Shown: positions 2,580 through 39,595, counted from the stretch's first letter. The stretch: DNA of 64,000 nt from Escherichia coli (GCF_030013205.1 NZ_CP122648.1), one strand, 5' to 3'. Translations and numbers: made by a program. Notes: generated by a model from the sequence alone, not told the origin.

Positions 2580-3485
2580 CTATATTTCCAGACATCTGTT
2601 ATCACTTAACCCATTACAAGCCCGCTGCCGCAGATATTCCCGTGGCGAGCGATAACCCAGCGCACTATGCGGATGCCATTCGTTATAATGCTCGAACGCC
2701 TCTGCAAGGTTCTTTGCTGCCGTTAACCCGTCTGGTTTGGGCATGATACTGATGTAGTCACGCTTTATCGTTTTCACGAAGCTCTCTGCTATTCCGTTAC
2801 TCTCCGGACTCCGCACCGCCGTGTTCTTCGGTTCAAGTCCCAACATCCGGGCGAACTGGCGTGTTTCATTAGCCCGGTAGCATGAACCATTATCCGTCAG
2901 CCACTCCACTGGAGACGACGGAAGATCGTTGCCGAAGCGGCGTTCCACCGCTCCCAGCATGACGTCCTGTACTGTTTCACTGTTGAAGCCGCCGGTAGTC
3001 ACCGCCCAGTGCAGTGCCTCACGATCACAGCAGTCCAGCGCGAACGTGACACGCAGTCTCTCTCCGTTATCACAGCAGAACTCGAACCCGTCAGAGCACC
3101 ATCGCTGATTGCTTTCTTTCACGGCCACTCTGCCTGTATGTGCCCGTTTCGATGGCGGTACAGCAGGTTTTCGCTCAAGCAACAGCGCATTCTGGCGCAT
3201 GATCCGGTAAACACGTTTGGCATTGATCGCAGACATACCATCAAGTTCTGCCTGTCTGCGAAGCAGCGCCCATACCCGACGATAACCATACGTGGGCAGC
3301 TCTCCGATAACATGGTGTATACGGAGAAGCACATCCGTATCATCAGTGTGACGACTGCGGCGGCCATCCATCCAGTCATCGGTTCGTCTGAGAATGACGT
3401 GCAACTGCGCACGCGACACCCGGAGACAACGGCTGACTAAGCTTACTCCCCATCCCCGGGCAATAAGGGCGCGTGCGCTATCCAC
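2580..3485 (-). CDS. insD: IS2 transposase OrfB (InsD) frame, 301 aa; expressed as OrfAB fusion by -1 frameshift
   Basis: ORF track protein [30 protein letters not shown]... with DDE integrase-type core; recognised as IS2 InsD. Confidence 0.9.
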
Positions 3486-3808
3486 TTTTTTGCCCGTCCA
3501 TATTCAACGGCTTCTTTGAGGAGTTCATTTTCCATCGTTTTCTTGCCGAGCAGGCGCTGGAGTTCTTTAATCTGCTTCATGGCGGCAGCAAGTTCAGAGG
3601 CAGGAACAACCTGTTCTCCGGCGGCGACAGCAGTAAGACTTCCTTCCTGGTATTGCTTACGCCAGAGAAATAACTGGCTGGCTGCTACACCATGTTGCCG
3701 GGCAACGAGGGAGACCGTCATCCCCGGTTCAAAGCTCTGCTGAACAATTGCGATCTTTTCCTGTGTGGTACGCCGTCTGCGTTTCTCCGGCCCTAAGACA
3801 TCAATCAT
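3443..3808 (-). CDS. insC: IS2 OrfA (InsC) HTH protein, 121 aa
   Basis: [41 protein letters not shown]...; start placed at the internal Met of the 136-aa track ORF to give the 121-aa InsC. Confidence 0.85.
3485..3491 (-). promoter_or_regulatory. Programmed -1 ribosomal frameshift heptamer A-AAA-AAG at the insC/insD overlap
   Basis: Minus strand reads GCA AAA AAG TGG in the InsC frame; the -1 frame continues GTG GAT AGC... which is the InsD N-terminus (MDSARAL). Confidence 0.7.
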
Positions 3809-3899
3809 CTGTTCTCCAATGACTAGTCTAAAAACTAGTATTAAGACTATCACTTATTTAAGTGATACTGGTTGTCTGGAGATTCAGGGGGCCAGTCTA

Positions 3900-7638: not shown

Positions 7639-7651
7639 TCTATTGAAGAAT

Positions 7652-7683
7652 GCCGGATACGAATGGTTTTGTGTCGTATCCGG
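7652..7683 (+). terminator. Stem-loop (GCCGGATACG ... CGTATCCGG) just after the yicI stop; REP-like or terminator hairpin
   Basis: Perfect 9-10 bp inverted repeat 14 bp after the yicI TAA; no strong U-tract. Confidence 0.45.
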
Positions 7684-7932
7684 TAAATAATCTCACATCT
7701 GGTAATAAATATTTCTTCCATCGTATTTGCGAGCATGATCACGATTATTCATCACGAAAATGTGATCTGTGCCGAAAAATATCTATTAACCGCCCCGTTT
7801 TGTTTTATACATGTCCGGACTACGGACAGATTTTAGTATTGTTGTGAAATTATTCTGCTTTATATTTACCCTCAGAGATGGCAACTGAAGCTCTTCCACA
7901 TGGGGCTTCTTAATCTGTGATAAGGGTAAAAA

Positions 7933-9486
7933 ATGCAAATGATTACCTCGCGACAAAACAGATTATTACGATTCCTTTTACCACGAAGGGAATATACGAC
8001 TATTGTTACGATTGCCGGCTATTTAAATGTTTCGGAAAAAACCATTCAACGTGATTTACGTTTACTTGAGCAATGGCTGGAACAATGGCGAATAACCGTT
8101 GAGAAGCGTGCTGGCGCAGGTGTGATGTTAGACTCGAAGAATATTACTGATTTGCTGCATCTTGATCATTTGTTGGGAGCAGAATGTGAAGAGATTGATG
8201 GTGTAATGAATAATGCCAGGCGCGTTAAAATAGCGTCGCAGTTATTAAGTGAAACACCGAATGAAACGTCGATCAGTAAATTGTCAGAGCGCTATTTTAT
8301 CAGTGGAGCCTCTATTGTTAATGACCTGAGAGTGATTGAGTCCTGGCTTGCGCCGTTGGGGTTATCATTGATCCGAAGCCCAAGTGGTACGCATATTGAA
8401 GGTAGTGAAGGGCAAGTCCGACAGGCAATGGCATTACTGATTAACGGCATTATTAACCATAATGAGCCGCAAGGTGTCGTGTATTCACGTCTGGATCCCG
8501 GAAGTTATAAAGCATTAGTCCATTATTTTGGAGAAGAAGAGGTGTTATTTGTCCAGTCATTGTTACTGGATATGGAAAATGAATTAAGTTGGTCTTTGGG
8601 AGAGCCTTATTACGTTAACATTTTTACTCACATCCTTATTATGATGTATCGCAACACGCACGGGAATGCGTTATCCAGAGAAGAAGATCAAACCAGGCAA
8701 TATGATGAAAATATCTTTAATGTTGCCAGTCAGATGATTCATAAGATAGAACAACGAATTGCACATACATTGCCCGATGATGAAGTCTGGTTTATTTATC
8801 AATATATCATTTCATCAGGTGTGGCGATTGATGGACAAAAAGATGTTAGCATTATTTCACATATGCAGGCCAGCAATGAAGCGCGTCTGATTACCTGGCG
8901 TTTAATTACGGTATTCAGTGACATCGTGGACTGCGATTTTAGTGAAGACAGCGCATTATATGATGGCTTGTTGGTTCATATTAAGCCGCTGATTAACCGA
9001 CTAAATTATCGCATTCATATCCGTAATCCATTGCTGGAAGATATTAAAGCAGAATTAGCGGATGTCTGGCGGTTGACGCAATATGTGGTGAATCAGGTAT
9101 TTAAAACCTGGGGTGAGAATGCAGTGAGCGAGGATGAAGTAGGTTACCTGACCGTTCATTTTCAGGCTGCGATGGAGCGGCAAATTGCCCGTAAACGTGT
9201 ATTACTGGTCTGTTCAACCGGAATCGGAACTTCGCATCTACTGAAAAGCCGTATTCTGCGAGCATTTCCTGAATGGACGATTGTTGATGTTATTTCAGCA
9301 GCGAATTTATCACAGGTTTTGCCTGACAATATCGAACTGATTATTTCGACCATTAATTTGCCTACAGTCACTATGCCGGTCGCTTATGTTACCGCTTTTT
9401 TTAATGATGCCGATATTAAGCGAGTCACTGAAATGGTGATTACGGAAAAATTACATCATGCGACATCTCGGGTCGTTGAAATTTAA
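7933..9486 (+). CDS. PRD-containing transcriptional activator (BglG/LicR/MtlR type) with N-terminal HTH and C-terminal PTS EIIB-like domain, 517 aa
   Basis: N-terminal winged-helix region (TIVTIAGYLNVSEKTIQRDLRLLEQ), central PRD-like regions, C-terminal LLVCSTGIGTSHLLKSRI (EIIB-Gat-like phosphorylatable Cys motif); heads a PTS operon. Confidence 0.7.
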   Translation: MQMITSRQNRLLRFLLPRREYTTIVTIAGYLNVSEKTIQRDLRLLEQWLEQWRITVEKRAGAGVMLDSKNITDLLHLDHLLGAECEEIDGVMNNARRVKIASQLLSETPNETSISKLSERYFISGASIVNDLRVIESWLAPLGLSLIRSPSGTHIEGSEGQVRQAMALLINGIINHNEPQGVVYSRLDPGSYKALVHYFGEEEVLFVQSLLLDMENELSWSLGEPYYVNIFTHILIMMYRNTHGNALSREEDQTRQYDENIFNVASQMIHKIEQRIAHTLPDDEVWFIYQYIISSGVAIDGQKDVSIISHMQASNEARLITWRLITVFSDIVDCDFSEDSALYDGLLVHIKPLINRLNYRIHIRNPLLEDIKAELADVWRLTQYVVNQVFKTWGENAVSEDEVGYLTVHFQAAMERQIARKRVLLVCSTGIGTSHLLKSRILRAFPEWTIVDVISAANLSQVLPDNIELIISTINLPTVTMPVAYVTAFFNDADIKRVTEMVITEKLHHATSRVVEI

Positions 9487-9512
9487 TGTCAGAATTTTAT
9501 GAGGTATGACGA

Positions 9513-9983
9513 ATGGACATAACAAAAATCCTGAATACGAATCGCGTTATTTTAGATATGCAAGCGACGAATAAAGCGGAGGCGATTGAAGAATTAACTA
9601 ATCTTCTCAAAAAAGATGGTGCGATCGATTGTCGGGAAACCTTTATTAAAGATGTCTGGCAGCGCGAAGCGGAAGGCTCGACTGGTTTTGAAAATCATAT
9701 TGCGATCCCGCATGGTAAATCTTCTGCGGTAATTAATACCACGCTGGCTATCGGGCGTACCCGGCAGGATATTCCCTGGGAAACACTGGATGGCAGTAGC
9801 GTACGCTGTATTATTTTATTTGCGGTACGTCTTGAAGATCAAAATACCACTCATATCCGTTTACTTTCCCAGGTCGCGGGCGCGCTTGCAGATGATGACA
9901 TCATAGCGCAATTGCTGGTTGAGACGAGCCCGCAAAAAATCATTGATCTCTTTAGTCAGTATGCACAATCCGATGTCTACTAA
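9513..9983 (+). CDS. PTS EIIA component, fructose/mannitol (type 2) family, 156 aa
   Basis: ...GFENHIAIPHGKSSAV... conserved phospho-His region of EIIA-2 domains. Confidence 0.75.
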   Translation: MDITKILNTNRVILDMQATNKAEAIEELTNLLKKDGAIDCRETFIKDVWQREAEGSTGFENHIAIPHGKSSAVINTTLAIGRTRQDIPWETLDGSSVRCIILFAVRLEDQNTTHIRLLSQVAGALADDDIIAQLLVETSPQKIIDLFSQYAQSDVY

Positions 9984-10000
9984 ATAACAGGGAGTATCTC

Positions 10001-10315
10001 ATGAATATTGTCTGTGTTGCCGCCTGCACGGCGGGTATTGCTCACACCTATATTGCTCGTGAAAAGTTAATTAAAGGGGCAAAAGCACTGGGCCACACCA
10101 TTAAAGTTGAAACCCAGGGAACCATTGGTACAGAAAACGAATTGCAGGCGGCAGAGATCTCTGCTGCTGACGTCGTGATTCTTGCTGTGGATGTGAAAAT
10201 AAAAGGAGAAGAACGTTTTACCAATAAACGCATTGTGCGAGTAAAGACAGAGATCGTCATTAAATCGCCCGTTCAATTTCTTGAAAAGGTCGAAAAATCA
10301 CTGGGAAATAAATGA
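10001..10315 (+). CDS. PTS EIIB component, fructose-like family, 104 aa
   Basis: MNIVCVAACTAGIAHTYIAREKL...: N-terminal CxxCxxGIAHT phospho-Cys motif typical of fructose-type EIIB. Confidence 0.75.
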   Translation: MNIVCVAACTAGIAHTYIAREKLIKGAKALGHTIKVETQGTIGTENELQAAEISAADVVILAVDVKIKGEERFTNKRIVRVKTEIVIKSPVQFLEKVEKSLGNK

Positions 10316-10339
10316 TCCTTATACTGGAGGGATCTTAAT

Positions 10340-11431
10340 ATGAAAGAAAATAAAATTCCGGTTTCACAGGAAATTAAAAAACATTTATTAACCGGCATCT
10401 CGTGGATGATACCCCTTATTGTGGCCGCCGGGATATGTATTGCGTTGGGGCAAGTTCTTGGCGGTACAGATGTTGGTGAAAAAACAGGAACAATCCCGTG
10501 GATGCTTAATCAGATTGGCGGCTGGGGAATGGGGCTGATTGTGCCGCTGATTAGCGCGGCAATTGCCTATTCTATTGCCGATCGTCCCGGATTTGCCCCG
10601 GGCCTGATTGTCGGCTTTCTCTGTGGGCAAATCCATACCGGATTTATTGGCGGTATGTTGGGTGGTTTCCTGGTGGGCTACACCATTTTGCTACTTAAAC
10701 GCTATATTCGCCTGCCGCAGTCGATGCAAGGACTCATGCCAATCATGGTGTTGCCGGTATTAAGCACCATTATCGGTGGGCTGTTAATGATGACGCTGAT
10801 TGGTAAACCCATCGCCTGGTTACAAGAAGCACTGATTCATTTGCTCGAGTCGATGCAGGGCGGATCGCGCTTCCTGATGGGGGCCATACTTGGCGCGATG
10901 GCAACCTTCGATTTCGGTGGTCCGGTCAACAAAACCATGTCGCTGTTTTCCGATGGCTTGCTGGTCAGTGGCGTCTACGGACCAGAAGCCGTGAAATTTG
11001 TCGGCTCAATCATCCCTCCGTTTGGCATCACACTTTCGTTCTTACTGACACGCCATAAATACACCCGTGCGGAGCGCGAGGCGCTGAAAGCCGCGTTTCC
11101 GATGGGGATCTGCATGATCACTGAAGGAGTCATTCCGATCGCCGCGCGTGACCTGTTGCGAGTAGTGGGATCTTGTGTGGTGGCATCGGCGGTCGCGGGC
11201 GGCTTAATCATGGTGTGGGGCGTGGAGAGTCCGGTTCCACATGGCGGCATGTTTGTTGTGCCTCTGTTCACCCATCCTCTGCTGTTTTGCCTGGCGCTGG
11301 GTATAGGCACGGTGATTTGTGGCGTGATGCTTTCACTCTGGAAGAAACCGGTAACGGAACGCGACGAAGAGTTTGACGAACTGAGCGATCAAAAGCTGAA
11401 AGATGAAGAGATCACTTTCACCCTCGAATAA
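10340..11431 (+). CDS. PTS EIIC permease component, fructose-like family, 363 aa
   Basis: Polytopic membrane protein immediately downstream of EIIA/EIIB; Gly-rich TM helices typical of EIIC-Fru. Confidence 0.7.
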   Translation: MKENKIPVSQEIKKHLLTGISWMIPLIVAAGICIALGQVLGGTDVGEKTGTIPWMLNQIGGWGMGLIVPLISAAIAYSIADRPGFAPGLIVGFLCGQIHTGFIGGMLGGFLVGYTILLLKRYIRLPQSMQGLMPIMVLPVLSTIIGGLLMMTLIGKPIAWLQEALIHLLESMQGGSRFLMGAILGAMATFDFGGPVNKTMSLFSDGLLVSGVYGPEAVKFVGSIIPPFGITLSFLLTRHKYTRAEREALKAAFPMGICMITEGVIPIAARDLLRVVGSCVVASAVAGGLIMVWGVESPVPHGGMFVVPLFTHPLLFCLALGIGTVICGVMLSLWKKPVTERDEEFDELSDQKLKDEEITFTLE

Positions 11432-11442
11432 CCGGAGGCCCT

Positions 11443-12294
11443 ATGTTTGCCGATATGAAAAGTATGGTGATGAAAGCCTGGCATGAACATTACGCCTTGC
11501 TGGCGATCAACTGTATGAATCTGGAAAGTGCTCGCGCAGCTATCCGCGTGGCGGAGAAGAATCGCGCTCCGATCATTCTCAATCTCTATCAGGGGCATCT
11601 GGCGCATTTTCCTGCACCCGTCGCGGCGGCAGTGGTTAAAACGCTCGCGGAATCTGCCTCAGTACCGGTCACTCTGGCGCTTGATCATGGCAAAAATCCG
11701 GACTGTATTCGTCAGGCGTTTCGTGCTGGTTTCAGCGGATTAATGATTGATGCTTCTGCTTTTCCCCTGGAGGAAAACGTGCGCCAGACCAAGGCGGTGG
11801 TGGAACTCGCCGCCAGCGCGCAGCTCTGCGTTGAAGGCGAACTGGGCCATCTGGCAGATGCGCCGCGTTACGACCAGGCCGCCAATGCAGACATGATGAC
11901 GCAACCCACTGATGTGGAAGCGTTTATCGCGCAGACAGGCATTGATCTACTGGCCGTCTCGGTAGGCACGGCGCACGGCATGTACGCGCCTGGTGTTGTA
12001 CCTGCTATTGATTTTCAGCGTCTGGCGGAGATTTTCCACTGCTCGAGCGTGCCTCTGGCATTACATGGTGGTAGCGGTACGCCGTTCGATCAGCTCCAGC
12101 TCTGTACGACTCTGGGGGTAGCAAAAATCAACGTGGGGGCGGCCATTTTTGAACGGGGGAAATCCGCGCTCCTGCATACCCTCTGTCACGATATATCCAT
12201 TGAACTGGTGGACGCGCTGAAAGCTATGGAACTGGCCTTCGAAGAAGCGATTACACCGTATTTACAGGCGAGCGGCTCTATCGGCAAAGCCTGA
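11443..12294 (+). CDS. Class II ketose-bisphosphate aldolase (GatY/KbaY/FbaA family), 283 aa
   Basis: Contains LDHG, GTAHG and HGGSG motifs of class II zinc aldolases. Confidence 0.75.
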   Translation: MFADMKSMVMKAWHEHYALLAINCMNLESARAAIRVAEKNRAPIILNLYQGHLAHFPAPVAAAVVKTLAESASVPVTLALDHGKNPDCIRQAFRAGFSGLMIDASAFPLEENVRQTKAVVELAASAQLCVEGELGHLADAPRYDQAANADMMTQPTDVEAFIAQTGIDLLAVSVGTAHGMYAPGVVPAIDFQRLAEIFHCSSVPLALHGGSGTPFDQLQLCTTLGVAKINVGAAIFERGKSALLHTLCHDISIELVDALKAMELAFEEAITPYLQASGSIGKA

Positions 12295-12374
12295 TTCATT
12301 TTCTGTCATGGCCTTTATGCCAGTGCAATAACGCACCGGCAGGGCGGACTACACGCTGAAACTGGAGATTTAAC

Positions 12375-13235
12375 ATGTTAGTTTCGATGAAAGAATTACT
12401 GCAACCTACCCGCCAGCACGGCTTTGCCATTGGCGCATTTAATGTGGCGGATAACTGTTTCCTTCGCGCAGTCGTGGATGAAGCAGAAGCGACAAATACT
12501 CCGGCGATTATTGCCATCCATCCCAGCGAACATGATTTTGTGGGCGATGCCTTTTTCGCTCACGTTCGCGAAATTACCCAGCGTAGTCCGGTCCCGTTTG
12601 TACTGCACCTCGATCATGGTGCCTCTGTAGAGCATGTTTTGCGTGCGATTCGCTGCGGATTTACCTCAGTAATGATCGACGGTTCGCTGCTGCCGTATGA
12701 AGAAAACGTGGCGCTGACCGCAGAAGTGGTTCGCCTCGCTCACGCGGTTGGAGTGTCGGTTGAGGGTGAACTGGGAACCATCGGACAAACAGGAACGTCG
12801 GTAGAAGGTGGTGTTTCACAAGTGACCTACACAGATCCGGCGCAGGCCGCCGATTTTATTGCTCGTACAGGTGCCGACACTCTGGCTGTGGCGATTGGTA
12901 CAGCGCATGGCATCTATCCAAAAGGGATGCAGCCGAAGCTGCAAATGGACATTTTGCGCGACATTGCCGGACGTATTGATATTCCGCTGGTGCTACACGG
13001 TGGTTCGGCAAACCCGGACGCGGAGATTGCTGAATCAGTTACGCTCGGCGTCGGCAAAATCAATATCTCCAGCGATATGAAATACGCCTATTTCCAGAAA
13101 GTGCGTGAAATTCTCGCTAAAGAGAGCTGGTGGGACCCGAACGTCATCTATCCGGATGCGATTAACGCGGCGCGGGAAGTCATTCGCCACAAAATGAAAC
13201 TGTTCGGTTCGCTCGGTAAAGCATCACTGTACTAA
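12375..13235 (+). CDS. Class II ketose-bisphosphate aldolase paralogue (GatY/KbaY family), 286 aa
   Basis: LHLDHG, GELG, GTAHG, LHGGS motifs; second tandem paralogue. Confidence 0.75.
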   Translation: MLVSMKELLQPTRQHGFAIGAFNVADNCFLRAVVDEAEATNTPAIIAIHPSEHDFVGDAFFAHVREITQRSPVPFVLHLDHGASVEHVLRAIRCGFTSVMIDGSLLPYEENVALTAEVVRLAHAVGVSVEGELGTIGQTGTSVEGGVSQVTYTDPAQAADFIARTGADTLAVAIGTAHGIYPKGMQPKLQMDILRDIAGRIDIPLVLHGGSANPDAEIAESVTLGVGKINISSDMKYAYFQKVREILAKESWWDPNVIYPDAINAAREVIRHKMKLFGSLGKASLY

Positions 13236-13240
13236 GCCAG

Positions 13241-13264
13241 AAGGGCGGGGTGACCCGCCTTTTA
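13241..13264 (+). terminator. GC-rich hairpin plus T-run between aldolase 2 and the kinase (possible intra-operon attenuator or partial terminator)
   Basis: GGGCGGG-GTGA-CCCGCCT followed by TTTT, 6 bp after the aldolase stop. Confidence 0.4.
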
Positions 13265-13282
13265 CGCAACAAGGAACGAGAT

Positions 13283-14215
13283 ATGCACTATCTGGGGTTG
13301 GATATTGGTGGGACCAAAATCGCCGCCGTCGTCATGGATGCGCATGGCTGGGAGATTCGCCGTTACCGCTGCCCGACGCAAAAGTCGACATATCAACAAT
13401 TTGTCTCATGCGTTGTGGCGTTTATCGAGCAGATTAGGCGGGACGTTCAACGACCGATGCTGACAGGGATCGCCTTACCCGGCAGTATCTCGCCACTCAC
13501 TGGCCTGATTAAAAACGCGAATATTCAGGTGATTAACGGTCATGCGTTACAGGCTGATTTGCAGCAATTGCTTGGGCAACCGGTGGTGATAGCCAATGAT
13601 GGTAACTGTTTCGCGCTATCAGAAGCTTGCGACGGTGCCGGGCAAGATTATGACGTGGTATTTGGTATTACGCTTGGTACGGGCTGCGGCGGTGGCATTG
13701 CCATCAAGCAACGACCGTTTATAGGGGCCTGGGGAAATGCTGCCGAATGCGGTCATATCACGTTGCCAGGCTATACGGAGCAGGAAGATGGTCCATCAGT
13801 CAGTTGCTATTGCGGCAAACACAACTGCGTGGAGTCGTTTGTTTCCGGCAGCGGTTTTAGTGAACGCTATCAACAGATGACTGGTAACTTGCTCACTCCT
13901 GCGGCGATTGTCACCCTGGCACAACGTGGTGATGCTTGTGCCATGCAGCAGGTGGCACGTTTTCGCCAACAGCTTGCCCGCACGCTGGCAACCATCGTTA
14001 ACGTTGTTGACCCTGGCGTGATTGTGATCGGCGGCGGGCTTTCGAATGTGGAACTGCTTATCACCGCTCTGAACGCAGAAGTTGCTCCACTGGTTTTCAC
14101 CGATCAATTCACCACTCCCATTGTAAAAGCACAGCACGGCGACAGTAGCGGAATGCGTGGCGCTGCCTGGCTTGCTATGCGCAACGGAGAAGCCAATGAA
14201 ACGTTCACAAATTAA
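13283..14215 (+). CDS. ROK-family sugar kinase, ~310 aa
   Basis: MHYLGLDIGGTKIAAV... N-terminal ATP motif and CYCGKHNCVESF zinc-binding ROK signature; start moved to the ATG with AAGGAA Shine-Dalgarno rather than the upstream GTG of the track ORF. Confidence 0.75.
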   Translation: MHYLGLDIGGTKIAAVVMDAHGWEIRRYRCPTQKSTYQQFVSCVVAFIEQIRRDVQRPMLTGIALPGSISPLTGLIKNANIQVINGHALQADLQQLLGQPVVIANDGNCFALSEACDGAGQDYDVVFGITLGTGCGGGIAIKQRPFIGAWGNAAECGHITLPGYTEQEDGPSVSCYCGKHNCVESFVSGSGFSERYQQMTGNLLTPAAIVTLAQRGDACAMQQVARFRQQLARTLATIVNVVDPGVIVIGGGLSNVELLITALNAEVAPLVFTDQFTTPIVKAQHGDSSGMRGAAWLAMRNGEANETFTN

Positions 14216-14876
14216 TTATGTTATTGATAAAGCACATGCCATTGCGCAGACCTTCCGCGTTTGTTTGCCAGAGTTCGCCTATTTTACGGTGGATGACTGG
14301 CTGCAGCTGGAACGGGATAACTGGCAAGAAGTGGTCGACTTACAGCTCGGTTGGGATATCACCGATTTTGGTCGTGGTGATTTCAACCAAACGGGACTAA
14401 CACTGCTAACGATGCGCAACGGCGCGCTGGGGTCGGCGGCATATCCAAAACCGTATGCTGAGAAAATGTTGCAGATCCAACAAGATCAGCAGACTCCTTG
14501 GCATTTTCACACCCACAAAATGGAAGATATCCTCAATCGGGGCGGTGGAGACTTATGCATGCAGTTGGCCTGGGCCAACGAAGCCAATCTCTGTGATGAT
14601 CAACGAGTCATTACCGTGAGTGTTGATGGTCAGCGGCGTACCATGAAACCTGGTGAAACGCTGGTGCTAAAGCCGGGGCAGGGCATTTGCCTGCCGCCGC
14701 GTCTGTATCATCGCTTCTGGGCGGAAAAAGCGTTTGTTCTCGGCTGGGAAATTTCGATGGTAAATGATGACCAACATGATAACCATTTTCTTGAGCCGGG
14801 AGGACGTTTTCCGGCGATAGAAGAAGATGAACCGGTGAAATGGTTATTGTGTAGTGAGTATGCTGTTTTGCGGTAA
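14196..14876 (+). CDS. Cupin-fold sugar isomerase, D-lyxose/D-mannose isomerase-like, ~226 aa
   Basis: Size and His-rich segment (WHFHTHKMEDI) resemble cupin-type D-lyxose isomerases; start taken at the ATG preceded by GGAGA; overlaps the kinase stop. Family assignment is from memory. Confidence 0.5.
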   Translation: MKRSQINYVIDKAHAIAQTFRVCLPEFAYFTVDDWLQLERDNWQEVVDLQLGWDITDFGRGDFNQTGLTLLTMRNGALGSAAYPKPYAEKMLQIQQDQQTPWHFHTHKMEDILNRGGGDLCMQLAWANEANLCDDQRVITVSVDGQRRTMKPGETLVLKPGQGICLPPRLYHRFWAEKAFVLGWEISMVNDDQHDNHFLEPGGRFPAIEEDEPVKWLLCSEYAVLR

Positions 14877-14885
14877 TAGCGGGGA

Positions 14886-14909
14886 CGCTAACGTTGATAT
14901 CCGTTAGCG
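14886..14909. terminator. Palindromic hairpin (CGCTAACG-TTGATATC-CGTTAGCG) between convergent island operon and yicH
   Basis: Perfect 8-bp stems with an 8-nt loop in the 42-bp spacer; could act bidirectionally. Confidence 0.45.
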
Positions 14910-14918
14910 CCCGCGTAT

Positions 14919-16628
14919 TTACTGCACCGGCTCCGTCGATGTAACTTCGCCACTGGAAACGACGCCTGCATTCATGGTTTGAGTCACTTGCTGCTTTGTG
15001 GCGTTCACGGCATGCAATTGCCCGCTAACCGTAGGTTTCAGCGGGACATTGGCCTGAATATCGCCACTGGCAGTAAGCTGAATATTGCCGTCGCCAGTCA
15101 ACGGTAATTCAGGCCATCCCCACTGTTGCAAAATATTCACCGGCACACCGCGTCCATTCAGGCTGATATGGGTCTGACGTTGTGGCGTTTGTGAAACACT
15201 GGCGGTGGCTTCCAGAATGCCTTTTTCAGTAAATGCACTCAGTTCGCTGATATTCACCGTGCTGCTGTTGGCGGTCAGCGCCAGCGATGGGCGACGAACA
15301 TCAACACGATTGAATGTCGCGGCGGCGGCATTCAGATTCGCCGAACCACTCCAGACGCCCCATTTATGATCGGTAACCAGCGTCAGGTTGGCACCGTAAC
15401 CATCGAGCGCGGTGAGCTGCCACGGGAAGTCAGGGTCGATATCAATGATCAGATTGCGGCTGGCGCTAAATCTCTTCAGTTGCAGGCTGTTTAACCAGCC
15501 GGGTGTCGTTTCCATCCACAACTGTTGCCAGTTTTTCGGCAAGGTATATTCCAGCCCGGCAATTGCCGCATCATCAAGGATCAACGTTTTCCCGTTGCGC
15601 AGCCAGTTCCCGGACGTTCTGACCATGCCCCCTTCCCAGCGGCTGGTGAACTGGCGCAGTGCTACGCCCTGCGGGGAAAATTCTGCGTTTATAATCAGAT
15701 CAAATAAATGCAGCGAGCCATAAATAAACTCGCTAGCGTTCATCGACAGTTTGCCTTCCTGTGTCTGCCAGTCATCTTTACTGAAGGTCATGTTGCGCAA
15801 GCTGAGATCGAGGTCGGTCACCGCCCAGTCCGGACCTTGCAAACGAGCATCGATCACTTCCAGGCGACCAATCTGCAACGACGGGACAGAGCGTAATGGC
15901 GCAAAGAAGTCGGTTAGCGATTTTTCGCTTTGTAGACGGATATCCGCCAGCCGCAGATTTTCCACTTGCCAGCTGCCGTCGGCGTTACGCTGCGCGTTTC
16001 CGGTTAATGTCCCGCGGGCGATGTCGGCACCCAGGTTAGTCAGCGTAACGCGATCGTTATCAATACTGCCTTCAATCAGTACATTGGTGGCAGGAACATC
16101 ATTGAGCGAAAGCGATCCGGCACTAAACTGAATCTGCGCCTTCGTACCCAGCACTTTACCGGCTTCTGGTGACCACGGAACCACGCCGCCATTTACCCGC
16201 TGCGCGCTCAGTTTCCATTCGCTATTCGGGCTATTAAACGCCATATCACGCAGTTGCAGACGATCGGCTTTGAACGGTAGCGGCGCGGTCTGGTCGGTGA
16301 GATTCAGCGTCCCGTTTTCCAGCAGGATGGTATCGACATGGCGTGGTTCGGTCAGTTGCCGACTGCTTAGCGCAATGTCGACACTTTTTGCCACCAGGGT
16401 CGCGGGCTGACCATCACGGCCGAACGTGACGTTCTCCAGCACGATATGAGATGGCGCGGAAAAACGGTGATCCATCGCCCCGAAGGCCAGATGATAGTCG
16501 CTATTCTCGGAAACCCATGCGCTGATATGTTCTGCTCCCCAGCGGGTTTGCAGAAGAAAATAGAGGCCAGCGATCACCACTAACAGAGCGATGAAAATGT
16601 AGAGAAGCAGCTTCCCAATAAATTTCAT
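14919..16628 (-). CDS. yicH: AsmA-family protein YicH, 569 aa
   Basis: N-terminal signal-anchor MKFIGKLLLYIFIALLVVIAGLYF; start taken at the internal Met of the 577-aa track ORF. Confidence 0.85.
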   Translation of the reverse strand: MKFIGKLLLYIFIALLVVIAGLYFLLQTRWGAEHISAWVSENSDYHLAFGAMDHRFSAPSHIVLENVTFGRDGQPATLVAKSVDIALSSRQLTEPRHVDTILLENGTLNLTDQTAPLPFKADRLQLRDMAFNSPNSEWKLSAQRVNGGVVPWSPEAGKVLGTKAQIQFSAGSLSLNDVPATNVLIEGSIDNDRVTLTNLGADIARGTLTGNAQRNADGSWQVENLRLADIRLQSEKSLTDFFAPLRSVPSLQIGRLEVIDARLQGPDWAVTDLDLSLRNMTFSKDDWQTQEGKLSMNASEFIYGSLHLFDLIINAEFSPQGVALRQFTSRWEGGMVRTSGNWLRNGKTLILDDAAIAGLEYTLPKNWQQLWMETTPGWLNSLQLKRFSASRNLIIDIDPDFPWQLTALDGYGANLTLVTDHKWGVWSGSANLNAAAATFNRVDVRRPSLALTANSSTVNISELSAFTEKGILEATASVSQTPQRQTHISLNGRGVPVNILQQWGWPELPLTGDGNIQLTASGDIQANVPLKPTVSGQLHAVNATKQQVTQTMNAGVVSSGEVTSTEPVQ

Positions 16629-39232: not shown

Positions 39233-39583
39233 AGTAAATAGCTGACTTATGGATGTGCTGGGGATTCTATGTATTTAGCTGTGGCTTTACCATTACTTTT
39301 CCCGTTTTTGACTTAAATAGCAATTTACCCGCCAATTCTTGCTGAACATCTATACTTTTTTTGTATTTTTATGCGATTCATTGATTTCTGCAGTACGTGC
39401 AGGAAGGAATCGCAGAGCAACAGTGAAAGAATATGGTTGCTAATGATTTTATTTGATTGATTTCTTTATTGAAAATCAACAATGTGCTTAAAAATCATTC
39501 GGGTCGGATTGCCGCGAAAGAAGTGATACACTAGCGCGTCAATATCAGTGCGGTATCAGTATTCAGGTAGCTGTTGAGCCTGG

Positions 39584-39595
39584 GGCGGTAGCGTG
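39584..39595 (+). promoter_or_regulatory. ops element (GGCGGTAGCGTG) within the JUMPstart leader of the waaQ operon; RfaH recruitment site
   Basis: Exact GGCGGTAGCGTG ~50 bp upstream of the waaQ start in the waaA-waaQ divergent region. Confidence 0.85.

Follow-up and report, generated by a model that had tools for sequence, protein, structure and literature searches.

What is the eight-gene block that separates yicI from yicH in this Escherichia coli chromosome, and which sugar does it serve? The window analyzed here is the whole stretch of 64,000 nucleotides from GCF_030013205.1 (NZ_CP122648.1). A preliminary description had proposed an accessory island whose substrate is not revealed by the sequence; both points stand, but the status of the locus as a named, published operon was missed. 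The block is almost certainly frz, a PTS-dependent accessory operon for carbohydrate use that is on record from extraintestinal pathogenic E. coli (ExPEC; Rouquet et al. 2009, J Bacteriol 191:4427, as cited in PMC12928451, PMC8777976, PMC6727828, and PMC3325963). This assignment follows from agreement in site, size (∼7.2 kb), gene set, absence from K-12, and identity to LF82. In PMC12928451, GR 27 (yicH..yicI) of strain BEN2908, 7,227 bp in length, is stated to be the frz operon, which is given as present in LF82 and absent from MG1655. BEN2908 frz and the window share site and gene set, the block spanning about 7,230 bp in the latter. In LF82 the yicI-yicH site is occupied by the same eight genes, with per-gene nucleotide identity to the window of 95.6 to 99.7%; the LF82 allele differs by 2 to 4.4% in the regulator, EIIA, and EIIB genes, by 0.3 to 0.8% from EIIC through the ROK kinase, and by 1.5% in the isomerase. 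As judged by profile and structure-relative searches, the gene set also matches the list that the 2009 description is said to contain (a PTS activator, fructose-subfamily EIIA/B/C, two class II ketose-bisphosphate aldolases, a ROK kinase, and a cupin protein). Literature searches with frzA/frzC-type gene names returned only papers on Myxococcus Frz and vertebrate Frzb, none of them relevant. The observation is real but not a discovery, and it adds nothing to the catalogue; what is added here is a same-site module in Citrobacter, a split between core and accessory genes, and promoter-region elements conserved across five genera.

As had been described, the stretch from the yicI hairpin to the yicH stop codon holds eight intact genes on the plus strand (Table 1), and the reading frames agree with the RefSeq annotation of the 100% identical genome K_EC180. 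Intergenic gaps, correctly characterized before as mostly under 30 bp, are 26, 17, 24, 11, 80, 47, and -20 bp in gene order. The raw list of reading frames offered longer upstream starts for the last two genes (13250 for the kinase and 14157 for the isomerase), but the RefSeq annotation and the alignment with PDB 3kmh both favor the shorter starts. Folding bore out the terminator hairpin that had been placed after yicI. It is kept at the occupied site and, as a homologous hairpin, at the K-12-type empty site, and it delimits the insertion on the left. A stronger hairpin directly precedes the yicH stop codon (14919–14921); it is missing from the K-12-type site, forms part of the inserted block, and probably acts as a bidirectional terminator. 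Folding gave no significant structure for the 80 nt that separate the two aldolase genes (z -1.5), and no RNA families were found in the block with Rfam.

Table 1. Positions of genes and sequence elements in and around the frz block, counted from the first letter of the window.
Feature	Position	Strand	Details
yicI 3′ hairpin	7651..7685	+	12-bp stem; fold -18.3 kcal/mol, z -3.47
TGTGA pentamer	7761..7765	+	Invariant across five genera (alignment)
Inverted repeat TGTCC-N7-GGACA	7812..7828	+	Arms invariant, spacer variable
Invariant element TTTAGTAT	7832-7839	+	Five-genus alignment
Weak -35-like element TTGTTG	7839-7844	+	16-nt spacer to -10-like element
-10-like element TATATT	7861-7866	+	Read from sequence and alignment
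Probable Mga/MtlR/LicR-class transcriptional activator, 517 aa	7933..9486	+	Pfam, NCBIfam, RefSeq CDS
PTS EIIA, fructose/mannitol family, 156 aa	9513..9983	+	TIGR00848, 126.9 bits (cut-off 103.5)
PTS EIIB, fructose family, 104 aa	10001..10315	+	TIGR00829, 99.4 bits (cut-off 76.85)
PTS EIIC, fructose family, 363 aa	10340..11431	+	TIGR01427, 311.5 bits (cut-off 157.55)
Class II aldolase paralogue 1, 283 aa	11443..12294	+	Divergent; below all NCBIfam cut-offs
Class II ketose-bisphosphate aldolase paralogue 2, 286 aa	12375..13235	+	Subfamily NF006042/PRK08185
ROK-family sugar kinase, 310 aa	13283..14215	+	NF007108, 316.7 bits (under cut-off of 443)
Cupin D-lyxose/D-mannose-family sugar isomerase, 226 aa	14196..14876	+	Start overlaps kinase gene by 20 nt
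Strong hairpin between convergent isomerase and yicH genes	14879..14916		Folded over 14870-14925: -30.2 kcal/mol, z -4.98

The family calls previously made from motifs (a PRD-type activator, separate fructose-like EIIA, EIIB, and EIIC, two tandem class II ketose-bisphosphate aldolase paralogues, a ROK kinase, and an isomerase resembling D-lyxose/D-mannose isomerases) survived searches with NCBIfam and Pfam profiles and comparison with the PDB. In the regulator, a Pfam scan located HTH_11, Mga, two PRD, and PTS_IIB-like domains and detected neither a CAT RNA-binding domain nor a C-terminal EIIA domain; the protein ends 19 residues past the EIIB-like domain. Activators of the MtlR/LicR/ManR class combine HTH, Mga, two PRDs, EIIB-like, and EIIA-like domains, the last of which is absent from the frz regulator. 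The RefSeq product name, a BglG/SacY-type antiterminator, was ruled out by the presence of HTH_11 and Mga DNA-binding domains without a CAT domain. EIIA, EIIB, and EIIC each exceed the NCBIfam subfamily-domain cut-off for the fructose (Fru) family, EIIA with an IAIPHG motif and EIIB with an N-terminal CTAGIAHTY motif that includes the active-site Cys. Profiles and motifs show that these three proteins make up a full Enzyme II of the fructose family, its phosphorylation motifs intact. Among NCBIfam equivalogs, every substrate-specific Enzyme II model (FruA, MngA, FrwC, and others) scored far below its cut-off. The cryptic fructose-like PTSs of K-12 (frv, frw, and fry) are likewise fructose-family Enzymes II without an assigned substrate, and the FrwC-type model was among the best matches of frz EIIC (262.8 bits versus an equivalog cut-off of 426). 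These systems differ from frz in their associated genes, and frz EIIC lies below all of the equivalog cut-offs.

Upstream of the regulator gene, the promoter region was aligned across E. coli, Citrobacter, Raoultella, Pantoea, and Brenneria. The inverted repeat with invariant arms is a candidate operator for the Mga/PRD activator, and the elements from 7832 to 7866 form a putative activator-dependent promoter. A simple scan also flagged the repeat as terminator-like, a class of match that does not rise above chance, and both terminator-like and promoter-like matches in the block fall below shuffle expectation. Reading the repeat as an RNA terminator was rejected since the hairpin lies upstream of the predicted -10; a conserved DNA palindrome is the better description. 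The TGTGA pentamer is a possible CRP half-site. CRP-site calls from a consensus scan are unsupported (19 matches in the window versus 25.6 expected), and conservation of the pentamer across genera is the one remaining argument for the half-site.

The second aldolase exceeds both its subfamily cut-off (NF006042, 525.9 bits versus 405) and that of TIGR00167 (259.5 versus 215.6), while the first falls just below the latter (198 versus 215.6). Both keep LDHG, GTAHG, and LHGGS, so that the metal and catalytic motifs of the metal-dependent class II family (PF01116), the catalytic Asp-His and two more His ligands, are retained, and models for tagatose- and fructose-bisphosphate aldolases score them similarly. 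The paralogues, 33% identical, diverged anciently, and a recent tandem duplication was rejected on that figure. The order of a PTS and then a class II ketose-bisphosphate aldolase is reminiscent of the D-tagatose/galactitol pathways (a fructose-family or galactitol PTS with GatY/KbaY), which employ a kinase of the PfkB type and a partner subunit, GatZ/KbaZ. The frz operon differs in its ROK kinase, second aldolase paralogue, and isomerase, and both aldolases score below the cut-offs for GatY and KbaY. The kinase carries the ATP-binding DxGxT motif (DIGGTK) and the zinc motif CxCGxxxC/His, has no DNA-binding (HTH) domain, and is closest to Mak fructo/mannokinase and NagK (NCBIfam; PDB NagK relatives), below the cut-offs of both. 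The isomerase aligns over its full length with PDB 3kmh (E 2.4e-66), clear homology at the family level, without reaching the equivalog cut-off of NF051472 (273.2 bits versus 350). D-lyxose isomerase Z5688 of E. coli O157:H7 (PDB 3kmh/3mpb) belongs to the same cupin family, and its metal-binding HxH...E and downstream H are conserved in the frz protein. Z5688 is a paralogue at another locus, and the same substrate cannot be assumed because of the score below the equivalog cut-off.

Comparison among genera divides the operon into two parts. Pantoea clusters consist of the regulator, EIIA/B/C, and two aldolases, with neither kinase nor isomerase; Brenneria has the Pantoea-type set plus a ROK gene, and a metagenomic relative (L013/L014) adds isomerase, ROK, and a type I phosphomannose isomerase. 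The conserved core is the regulator, the PTS, and the two aldolases, and the kinase and isomerase are accessory. In Listeria monocytogenes, the lineage-variable cluster lmo2133-lmo2138 contains two class II aldolases with fructose-family EIIC, EIIB, and EIIA; PMC2996996 describes lmo2133-2137 as homologous to the ExPEC operon, and the genes it lists include no ROK kinase and no cupin isomerase. A Salmonella cluster without a PTS brings together a class II aldolase and a member of the frz-type isomerase family with an MFS transporter, a mutarotase, an alcohol dehydrogenase, and a PfkB kinase. Amino-acid identity of the frz genes exceeds nucleotide identity across genera, indicating apparent purifying selection, with the four metabolic enzymes conserved alongside the PTS.

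At least 80% of the block is present in 1,601 of 5,426 complete E. coli genomes, and the EIIC gene in 1,605 of these (∼30%). That the block is accessory and that yicI and yicH adjoin in K-12, both stated in the preliminary description, agrees with the empty site of a K-12-type (O16:H48) genome, where the two genes are adjacent and 52 bp apart. Citrobacter carries the module at the same yicI-yicH site, and nucleotide identity to Citrobacter is 72 to 82% for frz genes versus 76 to 84% for the flanking yicI, yicH, and xanP. Because the site is shared and the divergence resembles that of flanking core genes, the locus is probably old at this site and was lost from K-12-like and many other E. coli lineages rather than recently imported. 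Neither flanking direct repeats nor an integrase or IS element within the block was found, and a mobile-element origin at the site was rejected accordingly. An IS2 lies nearby, upstream of yicJ, and is unrelated to the block. A recently acquired, pathogenicity-associated island would sit well with the patchy distribution and with the association of frz with virulent ExPEC that is reported in PMC12928451. GC3 is 38 to 42% in frzR, EIIA, and EIIB, 50 to 58% in the other operon genes, and 57 to 63% in the flanks; the low values of the first three genes could mean a foreign or mosaic origin, which weakens the reading as an ancestral locus. The module is located elsewhere in the chromosome of Raoultella, so that it has moved at least once, and within a nif cluster in Brenneria. 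Set against the identical Citrobacter insertion site, the core-like divergence, and the lack of integrase, IS element, and flanking repeats, a recent island is doubtful.

Beyond assignment to a PTS family, we infer the metabolic steps from sequence. The activator would be controlled by the PTS phosphorelay through its PRD and EIIB-like domains and would activate the operon that encodes it through an activator-dependent promoter with the conserved TGTCC-N7/8-GGACA site. Enzyme II would import and phosphorylate a sugar, most likely a ketose or one of mannose/lyxose configuration, and the aldolase pair would split the sugar phosphate into DHAP and a second fragment. Kinase and isomerase would be accessory, feeding a related aldose or ketose, in unphosphorylated form, into this pathway or into central ones. 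From the enzyme set, the preliminary description had drawn a linear route of import, isomerization, second phosphorylation, and cleavage, but the fit to the families is awkward and the route is only one possibility. In it, the isomerase would turn the PTS sugar phosphate into a ketose, and the ROK kinase would add a second phosphate to give a ketose-1,6-bisphosphate that is cleaved to two triose phosphates; the pair could be of the D-talose/D-tagatose or D-mannose/D-fructose type, with the isomerase converting the sugar phosphate or the free form. The operon encodes all four activities, the second aldolase exceeds a ketose-bisphosphate aldolase cut-off, both paralogues resemble tagatose-/fructose-bisphosphate aldolases, and D-lyxose isomerases accept mannose-configured aldoses, including D-talose. 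We nevertheless consider this route somewhat unlikely, because the nearest characterized relatives of the isomerase (3kmh) and kinase (Mak and NagK) use unphosphorylated sugars and because Pantoea combines the PTS with both aldolases without kinase or isomerase, so that these are not obligatory between import and cleavage. Moreover, ROK kinases of the Mak/NagK type typically phosphorylate C6, and the second kinases of known bisphosphate routes are of the PfkB type.

The Pantoea core also suits a route in which a ketose 1-phosphate formed by the PTS, possibly of more than six carbons, is cleaved directly by the aldolase pair to DHAP and a free mannose- or lyxose-configured aldose. Where present, the isomerase and the ROK kinase, joined in one relative by a phosphomannose isomerase, would salvage this aldose. 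The accessory genes, including the type I phosphomannose isomerase of the metagenomic relative, all encode free-sugar enzymes, and the gene set of the PTS-less Salmonella cluster fits ketose monophosphate cleavage. A similarly close relative of the frz aldolases, the E. coli class II aldolase YdjI (6ofu), is known to cleave a ketose 1-phosphate. Such a scheme is drawn purely from gene content, however, and leaves the need for two aldolases unexplained; we know of no ketose 1-phosphate substrate of this kind for E. coli, and housekeeping kinases in Pantoea could supply a second phosphate. On balance it appears unlikely. The operon might instead be mainly sensory, with Enzyme II and the PRD activator informing other genes (the fim switch, for example) of the state of nutrients or stress, and with little role as a pathway for growth substrates. 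Consistent with this, the phenotypes given for frz in PMC12928451, PMC8777976, PMC6727828, and PMC3325963 are better fitness under low oxygen in late stationary phase and in gut colonization, and a type 1 fimbriae switch biased to ON, rather than growth on a defined sugar. The regulator has PTS-regulated domains, and no substrate assignment for frz was found in the searchable literature. A sensory role is hard to square with four intact metabolic enzymes that different genera keep together with the PTS, apparently under purifying selection. In the 2009 study the metabolic enzymes are also reported to contribute to the phenotypes, and a chiefly sensory operon seems quite improbable. As a bolder and still less probable proposal, the frz core may catabolize a host- or diet-derived ketose, possibly larger than a hexose, through its 1-phosphate formed on import, with release of DHAP and a free mannose/lyxose-configured aldose that is salvaged by the accessory isomerase and ROK kinase.

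The frz operon is a recognized ExPEC-associated fitness determinant, and the question of its substrate is an old one. The sugar, once known, would link a metabolic operon to stress survival, gut colonization, and expression of type 1 fimbriae, and its relevance perhaps extends to Listeria lineages I and II, where the core is also present. The split between core (PTS and two aldolases) and accessory genes (kinase and isomerase), together with the conserved operator-like palindrome, narrows the experiments. Direct cleavage of a 1-phosphate, if true, would amount to a novel pathway linked to a PTS, and it would account for the lack of any standard carbon source tied to this ExPEC-fitness operon.

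The 7.2-kb block between yicI and yicH is the frz operon, so called in extraintestinal pathogenic E. coli, and the locus is already known as a named operon with published phenotypes. In the genome of ExPEC strain BEN2908, a recent analysis describes GR 27 'yicH..yicI' as a 7,227-bp feature corresponding to the frz operon; LF82 and the other ExPEC and AIEC strains compared there have the region, and MG1655 does not (PMC12928451, 2026; citing Rouquet et al. 2009, J Bacteriol 191:4427). The LF82 locus carries the same eight genes, of equal lengths, between yicI and yicH, with per-gene nucleotide identity to the window of 95.6–99.7%. The abstract of Rouquet et al. 2009 reportedly names exactly the gene set found here. 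According to the citing papers, the frz genes are transcribed as a single operon, aid late stationary-phase survival under oxygen restriction, contribute to intestinal colonisation, adhesion and internalisation, and bias the type 1 fimbriae switch to ON; by hybridisation, frz was found in 5% of non-pathogenic avian strains versus 75% of the most virulent group (PMC12928451, PMC8777976, PMC6727828, PMC3325963). The literature searched, papers citing the original frz study among them, yielded no substrate assignment for frz.

The eight same-strand genes proposed for 7684–14912 in the preliminary description were borne out by open reading frames and by RefSeq annotation of E. coli K_EC180 (swine faeces), the annotation reference, which is 100% identical over the block. 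Kinase and isomerase reading frames in the raw list reach upstream GTG codons at 13250 and 14157; the shorter starts are preferred because of the RefSeq starts and the 3kmh alignment, which begins at an internal Met of the isomerase, and with these starts the two genes overlap by 20 nt. Intergenic gaps in 5′ to 3′ gene order are 26, 17, 24, 11, 80, 47, and −20 bp. A hairpin marks each block edge, the right one being the stronger and lying directly before the yicH stop codon (14919–14921). The yicI–yicH spacer of a K-12-type O16:H48 genome measures only 52 bp, retaining the yicI hairpin and lacking everything from ∼7686 to 14916, in agreement with the earlier proposal that the block is accessory relative to K-12. 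Elsewhere in the window, an IS2 element on the minus strand (2580–3853; orfA 3443–3853, orfB 2580–3485) sits between the tRNA-Sec gene selC (2209–2299) and yicJ (3928); in K-12-type genomes selC lies immediately 5′ of yicJ. A JUMPstart RNA element on the plus strand (Rfam RF01707, 55 bits; 39557–39595) lies shortly before a long plus-strand gene run from 39645, which is presumed to be the waa cluster for the LPS core.

Features of the frz block and its upstream region (window coordinates)
Feature	Position	Strand	Basis or remark
yicI 3′ hairpin, left block edge	7651–7685		12-bp stem; −18.3 kcal/mol, z −3.5
TGTGA pentamer	7761–7765		invariant in five genera
Inverted repeat TGTCC-N7/8-GGACA	7812–7828		invariant in five genera
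TTTAGTAT	7832–7839		3′ of inverted repeat; invariant in five genera
−10-like TATATT with weak −35	7861–7866		invariant in five genera
Regulator gene	7933–9486	+	ORFs, RefSeq annotation of K_EC180
EIIA gene	9513–9983	+	ORFs, RefSeq annotation of K_EC180
EIIB gene	10001–10315	+	ORFs, RefSeq annotation of K_EC180
EIIC gene	10340–11431	+	ORFs, RefSeq annotation of K_EC180
Aldolase 1 gene	11443–12294	+	ORFs, RefSeq annotation of K_EC180
Aldolase 2 gene	12375–13235	+	ORFs, RefSeq annotation of K_EC180
ROK kinase gene	13283–14215	+	RefSeq start of K_EC180
Isomerase gene	14196–14876	+	RefSeq start of K_EC180, 3kmh alignment
Stronger hairpin, right block edge	14879–14916		14870–14925 folded: −30.2 kcal/mol, z −5.0

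At least 80% of the block was present in 1,601 of 5,426 complete E. coli genomes and the EIIC gene in 1,605, and partial islands are therefore rare. Carriers include ATCC 25922, LF82, an ST648 strain, and an O6:K2:H1 strain. The frz locus is essentially chromosomal and present once per genome. Among the 1,608 EIIC matches, a single one came from a plasmid record; two copies were present in one genome.

An old locus lost from many E. coli lineages is favored over a recent import. In Citrobacter the eight genes occupy this same site, bounded by the yicI and yicH homologs, with xanP, gltS, and recG following; nucleotide identity between E. coli and Citrobacter is 72–82% for the frz genes and 76–84% for yicI, yicH, and xanP, consistent with core-like divergence, and the block contains neither an integrase nor an IS element and is not flanked by direct repeats. 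This reading is weakened by the different chromosomal place of the module in Raoultella, by a seven-gene frz-like cluster lacking the isomerase amid the nitrogenase (nif) cluster of a Brenneria-like contig (L012, 5440–11757), and by the low GC3 of the first three genes (38–42% for regulator, EIIA, and EIIB; 50–58% for the other five; 57–63% for flanking core genes), so that composition changes sharply within the operon (7933–10315 versus 10340–14876). Divergence from LF82 is mosaic, with regulator, EIIA, and EIIB differing by 2–4.4%, similar to flanking core genes, and EIIC through the ROK kinase by just 0.3–0.8%, which suggests recombination inside the block.

Profile searches and homologue comparison showed the family calls of the preliminary description to be right. 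EIIA, EIIB, and EIIC pass the cut-offs of NCBIfam fructose-family subfamily-domain profiles (126.9 versus 103.5, 99.4 versus 76.85, and 311.5 versus 157.55 bits, respectively), and the phosphorylation motifs are whole (IAIPHG in EIIA, CTAGIAHTY in EIIB). As judged from sequence, the fructose-family phosphorelay is complete and apparently functional. None of the three reaches a substrate-specific NCBIfam equivalog cut-off (FruA, MngA, FrwC-type, and others), in keeping with the earlier statement that the sequence does not reveal the sugar. In the Pfam scan the regulator shows HTH_11 and Mga domains, a pair of PRDs, and a PTS_IIB-like domain; it lacks the C-terminal EIIA-like domain usual in the Mga/MtlR/LicR class, and is predicted to be a DNA-binding activator of that class. 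RefSeq names it a "BglG family transcription antiterminator," which is misleading, since the scan detected no CAT RNA-binding domain.

By profile, aldolase 2 genuinely belongs to the ketose-bisphosphate aldolase subfamily (TIGR00167, 259.5 versus 215.6 bits; NF006042, 525.9 versus 405), and aldolase 1 is divergent and falls under every NCBIfam cut-off. The two paralogues share only 33% identity, ruling out recent duplication. LDHG, GTAHG, and LHGGS motifs, which presumably hold the catalytic Asp and three His ligands as in AgaY-type enzymes, are present in both, and the two class II aldolases are potentially active. The kinase belongs to the ROK family, lacks an HTH domain, and is nearest to Mak and NagK. 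The isomerase is a cupin with full-length homology to 3kmh, the D-lyxose isomerase of E. coli O157:H7 (E 2.4e-66), but its 273 bits lie under the NCBIfam equivalog cut-off of 350. The sequence shows the operon to encode a PTS-regulated activator, a sugar kinase, and a sugar isomerase.

Upstream intergenic DNA was compared among E. coli, Citrobacter, Raoultella, Pantoea, and Brenneria; three elements are invariant and the rest has diverged. The region is read as a putative activator-dependent promoter, in which the inverted repeat would be the likely operator. A simple promoter/terminator scan of the block and a CRP consensus scan of the window each gave matches no more frequent than chance.

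The PTS would import and phosphorylate a sugar, and the aldolases would split the phosphorylated product. A linear order of import, isomerisation, second phosphorylation, and cleavage, as initially proposed, is possible but fits poorly with the use of free sugars by the closest characterised homologues of isomerase and kinase, and with clusters that lack both enzymes. In an alternative suggested by gene content, the aldolases would act directly on a ketose 1-phosphate, and the freed aldose would be salvaged by the accessory enzymes; the class II aldolase YdjI is a precedent for such cleavage. A mainly sensory role of the system is a further option, consistent with the published frz phenotypes.

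Within the isomerase family, a more distant protein occurs in Salmonella enterica (L007, 5455–14541), where an integrase-adjacent island without a PTS encodes an MFS transporter, mutarotase, Lyx-family isomerase, class II aldolase, PfkB kinase, zinc alcohol dehydrogenase, and DeoR regulator, as a PTS-independent variation on the combination of isomerase, kinase, and aldolase. A second PTS unit (L013/L014, 1–4470) lies beside the distant frz-like cluster of a metagenomic relative; it combines one class II aldolase with a fused EIIABC and a PRD regulator that bears an EIIA domain, and the pairing of PTS with class II aldolase therefore recurs. Among frz-like clusters, those of Pantoea contain only regulator, EIIA, EIIB, EIIC, aldolase 1, and aldolase 2, that of Brenneria adds the ROK kinase, and that of the metagenomic relative adds isomerase, ROK kinase, and a type I phosphomannose isomerase. 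In Listeria monocytogenes, lmo2133–2137 is described as the homolog of the ExPEC operon and listed with two aldolases plus EIIC, EIIB, and EIIA (PMC2996996). These gene contents indicate that the PTS and the aldolase pair are the conserved functional unit, to which kinase and isomerase are add-ons.
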